From assembly GCF_003018235.1 (NCBI RefSeq), contig NZ_CP027437.1: DNA of 64,000 bases; one strand, written 5' to 3'. The stretch is from Escherichia coli (GTDB lineage: Bacteria > Pseudomonadota > Gammaproteobacteria > Enterobacterales > Enterobacteriaceae). This document shows, in pieces, positions 7,699 to 43,146 of the stretch. Each line of letters begins with the position of its first letter. Position 1 is the stretch's first letter. Both the position numbers and the translations under genes were made by a program. The notes under the pieces were generated by a model that was not told where the DNA came from, searched no databases, and worked only from the letters and a program-made list of their open reading frames with translations.

Positions 7699-8691
7699 TT
7701 ATGGCAATGGGTTATTGGCCCGACGCGCCAGCCACTCTTTAATTTGCTGGCGATGCAGGCTAACGGAACGACCTACGACAACGACGATAAGTAGCGCACC
7801 GGAAAGGGCGCTGGACACCTGATTTGGCACTCCTGCCATTTGCAAACCTTGTTGCAAATATCCCACTAATAAAACCGCAATGGCGGTGCCGATAATGGAA
7901 CCAGAACCACCATAAATATTGGCACCGCCGAGCACTACGGCGGTGATGGCGGGCATCAGAAACGACGCACCGAGATCGGAACGTGCTGAACCAAAATACG
8001 ATACCAGCAGCACAGCGGCGACCGCAGACGCCAGCCCCGTCATGGCATAGAGCGCACATAAGGTGCGGTTAACTGGAATCGCGCTATAAACCGCCACACG
8101 CGGGCTTTGCCCAATTAAAAACACGTTACGTCCGGCATGGGTTTTATGCAGCCAGAGCCAGAAAACGAGGAGACATATCAGGAAGATAATCAGCGGAACG
8201 GGGAGTCCCAGTACATCCAGGTTAGCGAAATCTGTAAACGCCATCGGGAATCCACCAATACCTTCGTACCCCGTCGCTCCGGCCATCCCGGAAAGCAGCA
8301 GGGCGCTTCCGGCAAACAGATACAGCGTGCCAAGCGTAATCACCAGCGGGTTAACTTTGGTATAGATAATTAATCCGGCGTTGATCAGCCCGCACAATGC
8401 GCCGAGCAGTAAGGTCAGGAGAATCGCCAGCGGCATCGGCACACGACTTTGAAACAGTACGCCCAATGCAATGGCGCAGAGGCCGATAGTCGAACCAAAC
8501 GAAATATCGATCCCACCACTGACAATCACCATCGTCAGCGGTAGGGCGACAATGCCAATGCAGATAAAGTCACTGGTGCTGAACAGCAACATATTGAGAT
8601 CTAACATCCGCGGGTTAATTGCACCAAATGCTACAATCTCAATAACGAGCAGTGCGGCAAGAGCCAGTTCCCAACCGTAGCGAATACGCAT
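7699..8691 (-). CDS. lsrD: AI-2 ABC transporter permease
   Basis: 330-aa polytopic permease; 1-nt overlap with lsrC. Confidence 0.9.
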
Positions 8692-35466: not shown

Positions 35467-35868
35467 TTATTTGCTAACAAGTATTCAACCACGCACCCTA
35501 CGTAAAAATTAAAATGGGGCAGCCATTCCCTGCCCCGCGTTGTCTCCAGTCGATATATTATCATGAGATAAATAAGTGACAGCCGTCACATATTTATGCA
35601 TTTACATAACCTGTTGCATGATTATTTATGATCTCAATTCTGGATTTTGTCAGTAAATATAATATTTTATTAAATATCAATGGATTAGATGTTTATCATT
35701 GAGAAATTACTTAGTAGAACAGAAAGTAATGTCAACGCTTTATGGACTGTTATTTCCCTTTTTTTAGCTAAATCTGCTATCTCTTTATGTGACTAACTTC
35801 ACTTACACCCACTTATTTCTCTTCGTAAAATTACTTTGGAATTAAGTACAATAAGAAGAGGAACATTT

Positions 35869-37551
35869 ATGAAGTCTGCATTAAAGAAAAGTGTCGTAAG
35901 TACCTCGATATCTTTGATACTGGCATCTGGTATGGCTGCATTTGCTGCTCATGCGGCAGATGATGTAAAGCTGAAAGCAACCAAAACAAACGTTGCTTTC
36001 TCAGACTTTACGCCGACTGAATACAGTACCAAGGGAAAGCCAAATATTATCGTACTGACTATGGATGATCTTGGTTATGGACAACTTCCTTTTGATAAGG
36101 GATCTTTTGACCCAAAAACAATGGAAAATCGTGAAGTTGTCGATACCTACAAAATAGGGATAGATAAAGCCATTGAAGCTGCGCAAAAATCAACGCCGAC
36201 GCTCCTTTCATTAATGGATGAAGGCGTACGTTTTACTAACGGCTATGTGGCGCACGGTGTTTCCGGCCCCTCCCGCGCCGCAATAATGACCGGTCGAGCG
36301 CCCGCCCGCTTTGGTGTCTATTCCAATACCGATGCTCAGGATGGTATTCCGCTAACAGAAACTTTCTTGCCTGAATTATTCCAGAATCATGGTTATTACA
36401 CTGCAGCAGTAGGTAAATGGCACTTGTCAAAAATCAGTAATGTGCCGGTACCGGAAGATAAACAAACGCGTGACTATCATGACAACTTCACCACATTTTC
36501 TGCGGAAGAATGGCAACCTCAAAACCGTGGCTTTGATTACTTTATGGGATTCCACGCTGCAGGAACGGCATATTACAACTCCCCTTCACTGTTCAAAAAC
36601 CGTGAACGCGTCCCCGCAAAAGGTTATATCAGCGATCAGTTAACCGATGAGGCAATTGGCGTTGTTGATCGTGCCAAAACACTTGACCAGCCTTTTATGC
36701 TTTACCTGGCTTATAATGCTCCGCACCTGCCAAATGATAATCCTGCACCGGAGCAATATCAGAAGCAATTTAATACTGGTAGTCAAACAGCAGATAACTA
36801 CTACGCTTCCGTTTATTCTGTTGATCAGGGTGTAAAACGCATTCTCGAACAACTGAAGAAGAACGGACAGTATGACAATACTATTATTCTCTTTACCTCC
36901 GATAATGGTGCGGTTATCGATGGTCCTCTGCCGCTGAACGGGGCGCAAAAAGGCTATAAGAGTCAGACCTATCCTGGCGGTACTCACACCCCAATGTTTA
37001 TGTGGTGGAAAGGAAAACTTCAACCCGGTAATTATGACAAGCTGATTTCCGCAATGGATTTCTACCCGACAGCTCTTGATGCAGCCGATATCAGCATTCC
37101 AAAAGACCTTAAGCTGGATGGCGTTTCCTTGCTGCCCTGGTTGCAAGATAAGAAACAAGGTGAGCCACATAAAAATCTGACCTGGATAACCTCTTATTCT
37201 CACTGGTTTGATGAGGAAAATATTCCCTTCTGGGATAATTACCACAAATTTGTCCGCCATCAGTCAGACGATTACCCGCATAACCCCAACACCGAGGATT
37301 TAAGCCAATTCTCTTATACGGTGAGAAATAACGATTATTCGCTAGTCTATACAGTAGAAAACAATCAGTTAGGTCTCTACAAACTGACGGATCTACAGCA
37401 AAAAGATAACCTTGCCTCCGCGAATCCGCAGGTCGTTAAAGAGATGCAAGGCGTGGTAAGAGAGTTTATCGACAACAGCCAGCCACCGCTTAGCGAGGTA
37501 AATCAGGAGAAGTTTAACAATATCAAGAAAGCACTAAGCGAAGCGAAATAA
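35869..37551 (+). CDS. ydeN: Periplasmic sulfatase (Ser/Cys-type, needs maturation)
   Basis: 560 aa from ATG 35869 (SD AGGA upstream); signal peptide; sulfatase domain with SGPSRAAIMTGR. Confidence 0.9.
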   Translation: MKSALKKSVVSTSISLILASGMAAFAAHAADDVKLKATKTNVAFSDFTPTEYSTKGKPNIIVLTMDDLGYGQLPFDKGSFDPKTMENREVVDTYKIGIDKAIEAAQKSTPTLLSLMDEGVRFTNGYVAHGVSGPSRAAIMTGRAPARFGVYSNTDAQDGIPLTETFLPELFQNHGYYTAAVGKWHLSKISNVPVPEDKQTRDYHDNFTTFSAEEWQPQNRGFDYFMGFHAAGTAYYNSPSLFKNRERVPAKGYISDQLTDEAIGVVDRAKTLDQPFMLYLAYNAPHLPNDNPAPEQYQKQFNTGSQTADNYYASVYSVDQGVKRILEQLKKNGQYDNTIILFTSDNGAVIDGPLPLNGAQKGYKSQTYPGGTHTPMFMWWKGKLQPGNYDKLISAMDFYPTALDAADISIPKDLKLDGVSLLPWLQDKKQGEPHKNLTWITSYSHWFDEENIPFWDNYHKFVRHQSDDYPHNPNTEDLSQFSYTVRNNDYSLVYTVENNQLGLYKLTDLQQKDNLASANPQVVKEMQGVVREFIDNSQPPLSEVNQEKFNNIKKALSEAK

Positions 37552-37563
37552 CTAAACCTTCAT

Positions 37564-37588
37564 GCGGCGGATTTTTCCGCCGCCTTAT
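37564..37588 (+). other. Stem-loop between ydeN and ydeM
   Basis: GCGGCGGA-tttt-TCCGCCGC, perfect 8-bp stem 13 nt after the ydeN stop; no T-tract. Confidence 0.4.
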
Positions 37589-37602
37589 TGAGCGAGATAG
37601 CG

Positions 37603-38760
37603 ATGCACGTTACAGCCAAGCCCTCCAGTTTTCAATGTAATCTCAAATGTGATTACTGTTTTTACCTTGAAAAAGAGTCGCAGTTTACTCATGAAAAATG
37701 GATGGATGACAGCACTCTGAAAGAGTTCATCAAACAATATATCGCAGCGTCTGGCAATCAGGTCTATTTTACCTGGCAAGGCGGTGAACCCACTCTGGCT
37801 GGCCTGGATTTTTTCCGTAAAGTTATTCACTATCAACAACGCTATGCCGGCCAAAAACGAATTTTTAATGCATTACAAACGAATGGCATTTTATTGAATA
37901 ATGAATGGTGTGCCTTTCTCAAAGAACATGAGTTTCTGGTTGGTATCTCGATCGATGGCCCCCAGGAGCTACATGACCGCTACAGACGCAGTAATTCAGG
38001 TAACGGTACTTTTGCAAAAGTGATAGCAGCCATCGAGCGTCTGAAATCATATCAAATAGAGTTTAATACGTTAACCGTCATTAATAACATTAATGTCCAT
38101 TACCCTCTTGAGGTTTATCATTTTTTAAAATCTATCGGCAGTAAACATATGCAATTTATCGAATTGCTCGAAACCGGGACGCCGAATATTGATTTCAGTG
38201 GTCATAGTGAGAACACATTCCGTATCATTGATTTTTCTGTGCCTCCTACGGCTTATGGCAAGTTTATGTCGACCATTTTTATGCAATGGGTTAAAAACGA
38301 TGTGGGTGAAATTTTCATCCGTCAGTTTGAAAGCTTTGCCAGCCGTTTTTTGGGGAATGGGCATACCAGTTGTATTTTCCAGGAGTCCTGCAAGGATAAT
38401 CTGGTTGTTGAAAGTAATGGAGACATTTACGAATGCGACCATTTTGTCTATCCACAGTACAAAATTGGAAACATTAATAAATCTGAACTTAAAACGATGA
38501 ACAGTGTACAACTGACAGCGCAAAAAAAACGGATTTCAGCGAAATGTCAGCAATGTGCATATAAACCTATCTGCAATGGCGGTTGCCCTAAGCATCGTAT
38601 TACTAAAGTAAACAATGAGACTGTTTCCTATTTTTGCGAAGGTTATAAAATCCTTTTTTCAACCATGGTACCTTATATGAACGCCATGGTGGAGTTAGCC
38701 AAGAACAGAGTACCGCTTTACCACATCATGGATGTTGCAAGACAAATGGAGAATAATTAA
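37603..38760 (+). CDS. ydeM: Anaerobic sulfatase-maturating enzyme (radical SAM/SPASM)
   Basis: 385 aa from ATG 37603 ([21 protein letters not shown]...), CxxxCxxC radical-SAM motif plus C-terminal Cys clusters. Confidence 0.9.
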
Positions 38761-38812
38761 TAACGCTCCCTCTTTGCTCCAGTCTTAGCTTCGTTCTTAT
38801 GGCCTTAACAAG

Positions 38813-38844
38813 ACACCCGACATAAATTACTGTTGGGTGTTTCG
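38813..38844 (+). terminator. Terminator-like hairpin downstream of ydeM
   Basis: ACACCCGACA-(8 nt)-TGTTGGGTGT (one G-U) followed by TTCG. Confidence 0.5.
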
Positions 38845-39050
38845 TCATCATCATCTTCCCTTGCGAAAATTCTGACTTACGTGGTATGCGTCAGGGCATT
38901 AGCAATACCCTTGATTATCAATAGCATAACCATAACCACTGAAAATTAAAAAATTCTTTATATTTCATATTGTTAAATGATACTTAAATAAATTTCATCA
39001 GTAAATCATTGCCATAGATAATCATTGGATGGCACAATCAATTTTCGCTA

Positions 39051-40773: not shown

Positions 40774-43146
40774 ATGAAGCGAGTTCTTATTCCTGGCGTC
40801 ATTTTATGTGGCGCTGATGTGGCGCAGGCCGTCGATGACAAAAATATGTACATGCATGTTTTTGAAGAGATGACGGTCTATGCTCCTGTCCCTGTACCCG
40901 TAAACGGCAACACGCATTACACCAGTGAAAGCATCGAGCGTTTACCGACCGGGAATGGCAATATCAGCGATCTGCTGAGAACCAACCCTGCGGTACGCAT
41001 GGATTCAACGCAAAGTACCTCATTGAACCAGGGAGATATTCGCCCTGAGAAAATCTCTATTCACGGTGCGTCGCCCTACCAGAATGCCTATTTGATTGAT
41101 GGTATTAGTGCAACTAATAACCTGAACCCAGCGAATGAGTCCGATGCCAGTAGTGCAACCAATATTAGCGGGATGTCACAGGGGTATTATCTAGATGTCA
41201 GCTTACTTGACAATGTGACGCTTTATGACAGTTTTGTGCCGGTTGAATTTGGTCGCTTCAATGGCGGGGTAATTGATGCAAAGATCAAACGCTTCAATGC
41301 TGATGATAGCAGCGTGAAACTGGGTTATCGCACTACGCGTTCGGACTGGTTAACATCGCATATCGATGAGAATAACAAGAGCGCATTTAATCAAGGTTCT
41401 TCAGGAAGTACTTATTACTCTCCAGATTTTAAAAAGAACTTTTATACCTTGTCGTTTAATCAGGAACTGGCTGATAACTTCGGCGTTACCGCCGGTTTAT
41501 CGCGCCGCCAGTCTGATATCACCCGCGCGGATTATGTTTCGAATGACGGCATTGTCGCCGGTCGGGCACAGTATAAAAACGTTATCGATACCGCAGTGAG
41601 CAAATTTACCTGGTTTGCCAGCGACCGCTTTACCCACGATTTAACATTAAAATATACCGGCTCCAGTCGTGATTATAATACCAGCACCTTCCCGCAGTCT
41701 GATCGTGAAATGGGTAATAAATCCTACGGTCTGGCATGGGATATGGATACGCAGCTCGCAAGGGCCAAACTACGTACCACCGTTGGTTGGGATCATATTA
41801 GTGATTATACCCGTCACGATCATGACATCTGGTACACCGAACTTTCATGTACATATGGTGATATTACAGGGCGTTGCACCCGTGGCGGATTAGGACACAT
41901 TTCCCAGGCTGTAGATAATTACACCTTCAAAACACGCCTGGACTGGCAAAAATTCACCGTGGGTAATGTTTCGCATCAACCCTACTTCGGCGCGGAATAC
42001 ATCTATTCCGATGCATGGACTGAACGCCATAACCAGTCTGAATCCTATGTGATTAATGCTGCCGGAAAGAAAACTAACCATACCATTTACCATAAAGGTA
42101 AAGGCAGCCTGGGAATTGACAACTATACGCTGTATATGGCGGATCGCATTAGCTGGCGTAATGTGTCATTAATGCCCGGCGTGCGGTATGACTATGACAA
42201 CTATCTGTCAAACCACAATATCTCCCCGCGCTTTATGACGGAATGGGATATTTTTGCTGATCAAACCTCAATGATTACCGCCGGTTATAACCGTTACTAT
42301 GGCGGGAATATTCTTGATATGGGATTACGTGATATCCGCAATAGCTGGACGGAATCGGTATCAGGCAATAAAACCCTGACGCGTTATCAGGATTTGAAAA
42401 CACCTTATAACGATGAACTGGCAATGGGGTTGCAGCAGAAAATCGGTAAGAACGTTATTGCGCGTGCAAACTATGTTTATCGTGAAGCGCATGATCAAAT
42501 CAGTAAAAGCAGTCGTACCGACAGCGCGACTAAAACCACCATTACTGAATATAACAACGACGGCAAAACCAAAACGCATTCGTTCAACCTCAGTTTTGAA
42601 CTGGCCGAACCCCTGCATATCAGCCAGGTAGATATTAACCCGCAAATTGTCTTTAGCTATATCAAGAGCAAGGGCAACTTGTCGTTAAACAATGGTTATG
42701 AGGAAAGCAATACCGGCGATAACCAGGTGGTTTATAACGGTAATCTGGTCTCTTACGATAGCGTTCCAGTGGCAGATTTTAATAACCCATTAAAGATCTC
42801 CTTAAACATGGATTTCACGCATCAACCGAGCGGGTTGGTGTGGGCGAATACGCTGGCCTGGCAAGAAGCGCGTAAAGCTCGCATTATCCTGGGTAAGACG
42901 AATGCGCAATACATCAGCGAATATTCAGATTACAAGCAGTATGTTGACGAAAAACTGGATAGCAGCCTGACCTGGGACACCCGCTTGTCCTGGACGCCAC
43001 AATTTCTGAAACAACAAAACCTGACGATCAGTGCCGATATTCTCAATGTACTGGATAGCAAAACCGCGGTTGATACAACGAATACCGGTGTGGCGACCTA
43101 CGCCAGTGGCCGTACTTTCTGGCTTGATGTCAGCATGAAATTTTAA
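40774..43146 (+). CDS. yddB: TonB-dependent-receptor-like outer membrane protein
   Basis: 790-aa ORF with signal peptide and a beta-barrel-like C-terminus ending in F. Confidence 0.85.
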   Translation: MKRVLIPGVILCGADVAQAVDDKNMYMHVFEEMTVYAPVPVPVNGNTHYTSESIERLPTGNGNISDLLRTNPAVRMDSTQSTSLNQGDIRPEKISIHGASPYQNAYLIDGISATNNLNPANESDASSATNISGMSQGYYLDVSLLDNVTLYDSFVPVEFGRFNGGVIDAKIKRFNADDSSVKLGYRTTRSDWLTSHIDENNKSAFNQGSSGSTYYSPDFKKNFYTLSFNQELADNFGVTAGLSRRQSDITRADYVSNDGIVAGRAQYKNVIDTAVSKFTWFASDRFTHDLTLKYTGSSRDYNTSTFPQSDREMGNKSYGLAWDMDTQLARAKLRTTVGWDHISDYTRHDHDIWYTELSCTYGDITGRCTRGGLGHISQAVDNYTFKTRLDWQKFTVGNVSHQPYFGAEYIYSDAWTERHNQSESYVINAAGKKTNHTIYHKGKGSLGIDNYTLYMADRISWRNVSLMPGVRYDYDNYLSNHNISPRFMTEWDIFADQTSMITAGYNRYYGGNILDMGLRDIRNSWTESVSGNKTLTRYQDLKTPYNDELAMGLQQKIGKNVIARANYVYREAHDQISKSSRTDSATKTTITEYNNDGKTKTHSFNLSFELAEPLHISQVDINPQIVFSYIKSKGNLSLNNGYEESNTGDNQVVYNGNLVSYDSVPVADFNNPLKISLNMDFTHQPSGLVWANTLAWQEARKARIILGKTNAQYISEYSDYKQYVDEKLDSSLTWDTRLSWTPQFLKQQNLTISADILNVLDSKTAVDTTNTGVATYASGRTFWLDVSMKF

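Follow-up and report, generated by a model that had tools for sequence, protein, structure and literature searches.

The 64-kb stretch of Escherichia coli chromosomal DNA analysed here (the window) contains the genes ydeN and ydeM, preceded by ydeP, safA and ydeO and followed by yddA, yddB and pqqL according to the record annotation. From position 35700 to 38900 the sequence is 100 % identical to that of ETEC1738 and 98 % identical to that of most other E. coli genomes. The gene ends read from the sequence are the same as those in the RefSeq annotation of a 100 %-identical E. coli record, and both sources confirm the distance of 51 nt between the two genes that had been given in the initial annotation. 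The stop codon of ydeN (TAA) occupies positions 37549-37551, and ydeM starts with the ATG at 37603 (Table 1). The TTG codon at 37588, upstream of this ATG, was ruled out as the start of ydeM because the orthologues all align at the ATG-CAY start.

YdeM (385 aa) is a radical-SAM/SPASM anaerobic sulfatase maturase. It matches TIGR03942 with 502.8 bits over residues 2-364 (cutoff 349.45), its translation displays the radical-SAM CxxxCxxC motif in the N-terminal sequence QCNLKCDYC, and the solved structure of the maturase anSME (4K36) is matched with an E value of 1e-62. The translation of ydeN (560 aa) comprises an N-terminal signal peptide and the active-site sequence S-G-P-S-R, and PF00884 is present in the orthologues of the protein. 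YdeN is accordingly predicted to be a secreted Ser-type formylglycine (type I) sulfatase. Thus, the identities proposed earlier, a sulfatase and its radical-SAM maturase, both held.

Several other features were observed around the two genes. A GC hairpin (35516-35536) and, at 35576-35589, the short palindrome GTGACAGCCGTCAC are located between ydeO and ydeN; the T-run of the hairpin is on the minus strand, counter to the genes on either side. Downstream, yddB (40774-43146) forms an uninterrupted open reading frame of 790 codons in the window and is listed by RefSeq as a pseudogene ('internal stop') in the near-identical ETEC1738. Upstream of ydeP, the window and the ETEC1738 record differ.

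Table 1. Features of the ydeN-ydeM locus, in window coordinates.
Feature	Position	Strand	Basis or remark
ydeN	35869..37551	+	RefSeq annotation of identical record, translation, weak NCBIfam sulfatase matches
ydeN-ydeM intercistronic spacer	37552..37602	+	51 nt
RNA hairpin	37564..37583	+	Folding, chance statistics, covariation across 17 orthologues
Hairpin, 5' arm GCGGCGGA	37564..37571		
Hairpin, loop UUUU	37572..37575		
Hairpin, 3' arm UCCGCCGC	37576..37583		
Tail CUUAUUGAG	37584..37592	+	Degraded U-tract, 4 U in first 8 nt
Weak Shine-Dalgarno-like GAGCGAGA for ydeM	37590..37597	+	Sequence; GAGA 5 nt before AUG
ydeM	37603..38760	+	TIGR03942 match, anSME 4K36 match, annotation
Rho-dependent termination region, approximate	38715..38725	+	PMC7815308 supplementary file 2, converted via MG1655 coordinates

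A conserved RNA hairpin between sulfatase and maturase genes

Between the ydeN stop codon and the stem of the intercistronic hairpin lie 12 nt, and a further 19 nt separate the stem from the ydeM ATG. It consists of eight perfect pairs, seven G-C and one A-U. The previous description as a perfect 8-bp GC stem was therefore correct with respect to length and perfection and slightly generous with respect to 'GC'. The folding energy was -16.2 kcal/mol for the hairpin alone and -18.7 kcal/mol for the entire 51-nt spacer, which places the spacer within the best 1.5 % of all 51-nt windows of the 64-kb window. In a context of 76 nt, the folding z was -2.5 on the plus strand vs -1.2 on the minus strand. 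To estimate how often such a structure arises by chance, we counted perfect hairpins of at least 8 bp with at least 7 G-C pairs and a loop of 3-8 nt in the window and in dinucleotide shuffles. Two were observed compared to 0.16 +/- 0.42 in the shuffles, and the chance expectation for the ydeN-ydeM spacer is about 1e-4. The second qualifying GC-rich hairpin of the window is located at 7923-7945, with the arm CACCGCCG and a 7-nt loop.

The 96 nt around the hairpin are those of K-12 MG1655 and were found in 5336 of 5426 complete E. coli genomes, with a median of one copy per genome and two at the highest. A REP/BIME element was ruled out, as the hairpin is single-copy, also within the window, and the REP consensus is absent. 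In three E. coli population variants that were inspected, the SNPs affected positions 37554, 37561 and 37572, the last being a loop base, and left the stem untouched. The loop variant, GGAAUUUUCC, was found on JARKOR010000108.1; this contig was binned as 'Candidatus Nanosynbacter sp.', is 98 % identical to E. coli ydeNM, and almost certainly belongs to E. coli and was binned wrongly. Insertion sequences occur at several places in the region: in ETEC1722, IS2 is inserted at the equivalent of about 37557, past the ydeN stop codon and ahead of the hairpin, and severs the hairpin and ydeM from ydeN, and further E. coli strains carry IS903B within ydeN or IS2 within ydeM.

The sampling of orthologues by a species-level genome scan with YdeM and from eleven further homologues yielded 19 distinct loci beyond E. 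coli. Enterobacterales were represented by E. albertii, Budvicia, two Yersinia, an uncultured enterobacterium, Leminorella, two Citrobacter, Dryocola, Salmonella, Mixta, Shimwellia, Proteus, and Providencia; the loci outside this order belong to Iodobacter, Aeromonas, Photobacterium, Psychromonas, and Vibrio mimicus. All 19 have the same gene order, a sulfatase gene (about 560 aa; 497 aa in Psychromonas) followed by the maturase gene after 42-69 nt. With E. coli included, one strong hairpin dominates the MFE of the spacer in 20 of 20 loci, with a core stem-loop of -12 to -21 kcal/mol, although the identity of YdeM drops to 52-69 %. The distance from the stop codon of the ydeN homologue to the stem was 4-24 nt, and that from the stem end to the maturase ATG was fairly constant at 11-26 nt. 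In Photobacterium, Psychromonas, and V. mimicus, hairpins of unrelated sequence occur at the same place.

A Ser-type sulfatase gene adjoining that of a radical-SAM/SPASM maturase is an arrangement shared with Klebsiella atsBA and with C. perfringens anSMEcpe (4K36). However, ydeNM has the sulfatase first and then the maturase, with a conserved hairpin between them, and the maturase gene comes first in atsBA. The genes flanking the sulfatase-maturase pair differ in each genus. The Proteus cassette (L021, 3403-5559) adjoins a Rep3 replication gene and a relB/yafQ toxin-antitoxin pair, and the Providencia cassette (L022, 3414-3980) adjoins a resolvase. Given that the neighbours change and that plasmid-type genes flank the pair in Proteus and Providencia, both genes travel together with the hairpin, apparently as a mobile cassette. 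Nucleotide matches also placed the ydeNM region at eight sites on E. coli plasmids. A terminator-like hairpin within 150 nt past the maturase gene was present neither in the window (38761-38900) nor in any of 19 orthologous loci; the internal hairpin is therefore the only strong one of the cassette.

To examine whether the stem itself is maintained, 17 spacers were aligned by MAFFT from sequence only, which placed the stem at columns 28-38 with 47-57 (11 pairs). At these columns, 87.5 % of the cells were paired, compared to 39-60 % with the partners slid by 1-3 columns, and none of 500 column shuffles reached the observed pairing values. Changes on both sides occurred in all 11 stem pairs, with 29 compensatory cells; these tallies refer to cells and not to independent events, with the slid partners and the alignment from sequence alone serving as safeguards against the main artefacts. 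The fold was more stable on the plus strand in 14 of the 20 loci and less stable in four, and G-U pairs were tolerated. Terminator-like scores, obtained by a d'Aubenton-Carafa-type heuristic with five well-known terminators as rough calibration and suited for ranking only, were lower on the minus strand in 16 of 20 loci, the exceptions being Proteus, Providencia, Y. pestis, and V. mimicus. Minus-strand scores were poor in 18 of 20 loci and exceeded zero in Proteus (+29.9) and Providencia (+6.5) only.

These results bear on the notion that the hairpin has no function as RNA, being a chance palindrome, a protein-binding DNA site, a REP-like repeat, or an antisense terminator. The DNA is indeed perfectly palindromic. 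A search of the region against Rfam gave no match at the gathering thresholds, and weak sub-threshold matches, the best with 20 bits (threshold 50), touch the hairpin on both strands. Against this notion stand the low chance expectation and the single-copy occurrence without REP consensus. A protein-binding site in the DNA is disfavoured because the stem sequence varies freely while pairing is retained, and a palindrome of this type was ruled out by the covariation. An antisense terminator was ruled out on the strand asymmetry of fold energies, with their tolerance of G-U pairs, and of terminator scores. We therefore consider the absence of an RNA function very improbable and conclude that the hairpin is a sense-strand RNA structure maintained by selection.

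Transcript levels, 3' ends and the tail of the hairpin

ydeN and ydeM are co-transcribed, and AraC is a direct repressor of both (PMC10878103). RNA levels were taken from Table S3 of the same study, which lists featureCounts and DESeq2 mean counts for BW25113 in the gnotobiotic mouse gut; the meaning of its 'Ave.' column was deduced from the methods of that paper. In the araC-deleted strain, the counts were 5399.1 for ydeN and 371.5 for ydeM, corresponding to about 10:1 per kb, and in the araC+ strain they were 92.3 and 21.7 (about 3:1 per kb), gene-level ratios from one study in which termination, decay, and mapping bias are inseparable. For comparison, malX:malY was about 1.5:1 and araF:araG about 5.7:1 per kb in this table (PMC10878103), the latter being comparable to the ydeN:ydeM ratio of about 10:1. 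The unequal counts indicate that the transcript is not uniform across the hairpin. A single uniform transcript, named in the initial annotation as the observation that would count against its proposal, was thus not seen, ydeN exceeding ydeM about 10-fold per kb in the araC-deleted strain.

The mapped termination region lies at the far end of the operon. A bicyclomycin-sensitive (Rho) region was reported at MG1655 position 1579674 on the minus strand, which corresponds to about 38719 in the window, 41 nt before the ydeM stop codon (PMC7815308). In the curated Term-seq tables of the same work (Adams 2021), which we searched over MG1655 15807xx-15809xx, no 3' end was listed at the hairpin (MG1655 1580810-1580829) or assigned to ydeN. 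This is weak evidence, since the operon is poorly expressed in those cultures. The TERMITe supplements likewise had no entry at the hairpin. The GC skew 3' of the hairpin, considered with a view to a rut site, amounts to a mild C excess only. A small antisense open reading frame, yneP (about 38726-38848, minus strand), overlaps the 3' end of ydeM, the Rho region lying just before the overlap, and yneP-ydeM has been described as a convergent 'excludon' (PMC12288877).

Two features of an intrinsic terminator have to be distinguished at the hairpin. In E. coli, a GC-rich stem-loop is present on the plus strand, and the run of about 7-9 U directly behind the stem, in which the proximal U matter most, is lacking: a scan for consensus promoters and terminators did not call the hairpin a terminator, and on the ranking score it reached -10.9, below even the weak T7 Te terminator, with +8 to +53 for the calibration terminators. 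The tails at the same position in Citrobacter, Shimwellia, and Salmonella are UUAAUUUU or UUAUUUUUU, and 'UU' directly follows the stem in nearly all orthologues. A U run does occur in Shimwellia, Leminorella, C. tructae, Mixta, and Dryocola, with plus-strand scores of +32 and +24 for the first two, +9 for both C. tructae and Mixta, and +7 for Dryocola. At the low end, scores were about -29 in Yersinia, about -30 in Psychromonas, and -55 in V. mimicus. Shimwellia and Leminorella thus have a canonical U-tract, and Yersinia, Vibrio, and Psychromonas have none. Because the hairpin persists without a U-tract, the conserved property is the stem-loop and not canonical termination.

Interpretation of the hairpin in the operon

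Taken together, we give about an even chance to the reading that the hairpin acts as a barrier to 3' exonucleases and terminates transcription weakly at best, with the result that ydeN mRNA exceeds ydeM mRNA. RNA polymerase would mostly read through the hairpin into ydeM, and Rho would terminate transcription diffusely close to the 3' end of ydeM, a region without protective structure. PNPase and RNase II would then degrade the ydeM segment from 3' to 5' until stalled at the hairpin, possibly after a cut by RNase E in the A/U-rich stretch behind the stem, and a stable ydeN-only message would be left. A minor share of the polymerases may stop at the hairpin itself, and a larger share in the relatives that bear a U-tract. 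The net outcome would be many sulfatase messages per maturase message, a ratio that would suit the maturase because it is catalytic and acts once per sulfatase chain.

This reading is favoured because the stem-loop and not the U-tract is conserved, because the tail in E. coli is too poor for a termination of about 90 %, and because the operon ends at a Rho site without protective structure, for which trimming has a precedent: in E. coli, Rho-terminated RNAs were shown to have their 3' ends at stable stem-loops that possess no U-tract and offer protection from PNPase and RNase II (PMC6061677). The stem-loops described by Dar and Sorek 2018 resemble the one studied here in being stable, in lacking a U-rich tail, and in that the mapped termination of the operon is Rho-dependent. 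In contrast to these, the ydeN-ydeM hairpin is intercistronic, precedes the Rho region by about 1.2 kb, and would protect the first gene only, and the curated tables list no 3' end there. As expected of a barrier, a stable stem-loop is located 3' of the upstream co-transcribed cistron with no further 3' structure, and the upstream segment is the more abundant one in the single gene-level data set. With 8 bp, the stem is rather short for a barrier to exonucleases.

Stabilising hairpins between cistrons that lead to unequal expression within an operon are known from the malE-malF REP of E. coli, pufQBALMX of Rhodobacter, and papBA. The ydeN-ydeM hairpin shares with these its position 3' of the more abundant upstream cistron, with a scarcer downstream segment. 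Unlike the malE-malF REP, it is single-copy and without REP consensus, and its stabilising role is putative.

Alternatively, the hairpin could be a leaky intrinsic terminator or attenuator at which a fixed fraction of the polymerases stops, in which case termination efficiency and not decay would set the ratio. Attenuating terminators within operons are known from the rplL-rpoB attenuator and from the terminator between rpsU and dnaG. As in these systems, the ydeN-ydeM hairpin lies in a short spacer, no promoter follows it, and read-through feeds the downstream gene; in contrast to them, it has no good U-tract in E. coli, although some orthologues do. Such a function would be consistent with a GC-rich sense-strand stem-loop directly past the stop codon, with the nearly universal 'UU', with the U-rich tails of Shimwellia, Leminorella, C. 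tructae, Mixta, and Dryocola, and with the fall of the RNA level across the hairpin; the spacer is too small for a promoter, and the promoter scan predicted none on the plus strand nearby. However, a tail such as CUUAUUGAG, with 4 U in 8 nt, fails the terminator scan, a 10-fold drop would need a termination of about 90 %, which is unlikely with this tail, and the hairpin is retained in Yersinia, Psychromonas, and V. mimicus, where no usable U-tract is present. The missing 3' end in the Term-seq tables points in the same direction, the operon being weakly expressed there. We therefore regard a leaky terminator in E. coli as possible but doubtful, whereas the sequences of the relatives with terminator-grade U-tracts favour co-transcriptional termination in those species.

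A role in translation was also considered, in which the hairpin insulates or positions the ribosome-binding site of ydeM for example by blocking ribosome carry-over or by serving as a standby platform, and YdeM synthesis would thus not depend on the translation of ydeN. The fairly constant distance between stem end and ATG would fit such an element, as would the Shine-Dalgarno-like block behind the stem, an AGAGA/GAGGA block before the ATG that is conserved in the aligned orthologues. However, the stem overlaps neither the Shine-Dalgarno sequence nor the start codon in any orthologue and thus cannot occlude them, and the lower level of ydeM RNA would be left unexplained, making this role quite improbable. 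Since ydeM has its own conserved Shine-Dalgarno-like block, it is probably translated independently and not coupled to translation of ydeN.

The hairpin, its conservation and strand, the absence of another terminator, the unequal RNA levels and the Rho region are observed; that the hairpin acts as an exonuclease barrier and causes the unequal levels is inferred. The earlier proposal that it tunes the ratio of sulfatase to maturase is indirectly supported by the selection on the sense-strand structure, by its being the sole strong hairpin of the cassette, and by the unequal RNA counts. It appears unlikely that read-through or processing at the hairpin is conditional rather than fixed, depending on the distance between ribosome and polymerase at the end of ydeN or on anaerobic or envelope signals. 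If this were the case, the supply of maturase would be gated apart from that of the sulfatase, and the hairpin would be a conserved checkpoint specific to sulfatase maturation.

Substrate of YdeN and significance of the arrangement

The substrate of YdeN had been called undefined in the initial annotation. This agrees with the literature of 2024, in which none is reported (PMC10878103), and with the solved structures, among which YdeN has no close characterised relative. Its nearest relatives of solved structure, with an E value of about 1e-52, are carrageenan (galactose-4-sulfate) sulfatases of the S1_19 type, which gives a weak hint, from sequence similarity, to the kind of substrate that might be used. 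Candidate substrates are possibly sulfated glycans of the gut, of host or dietary origin. With respect to regulation, ydeN was the sole gene induced by FD&C Red 40, a sulfonated azo dye, under anaerobiosis (PMC10653809), and it was among the most strongly repressed genes at pH 4.4 (PMC10746267). The supplements of two further papers, one on Ribo-seq under acid stress and one on fnr, contain neither ydeN nor ydeM.

In our literature search, no paper describing the ydeN-ydeM hairpin was found. That it is so deeply conserved in a mobile cassette of sulfatase and maturase seems to be new, yet of a familiar kind: because the principle is textbook operon biology, it adds an example and not a concept. 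What is seen is an element of 20 nt that has been retained over long evolutionary time in a mobile cassette of two genes, and it offers a testable reason why a co-transcribed sulfatase and its maturase would be made in unequal amounts. The hairpin also provides a practical handle for work on YdeN expression and for the search for its substrate. Removing or strengthening it should alter the supply of maturase and, thereby, the fraction of YdeN that is active and bears formylglycine.
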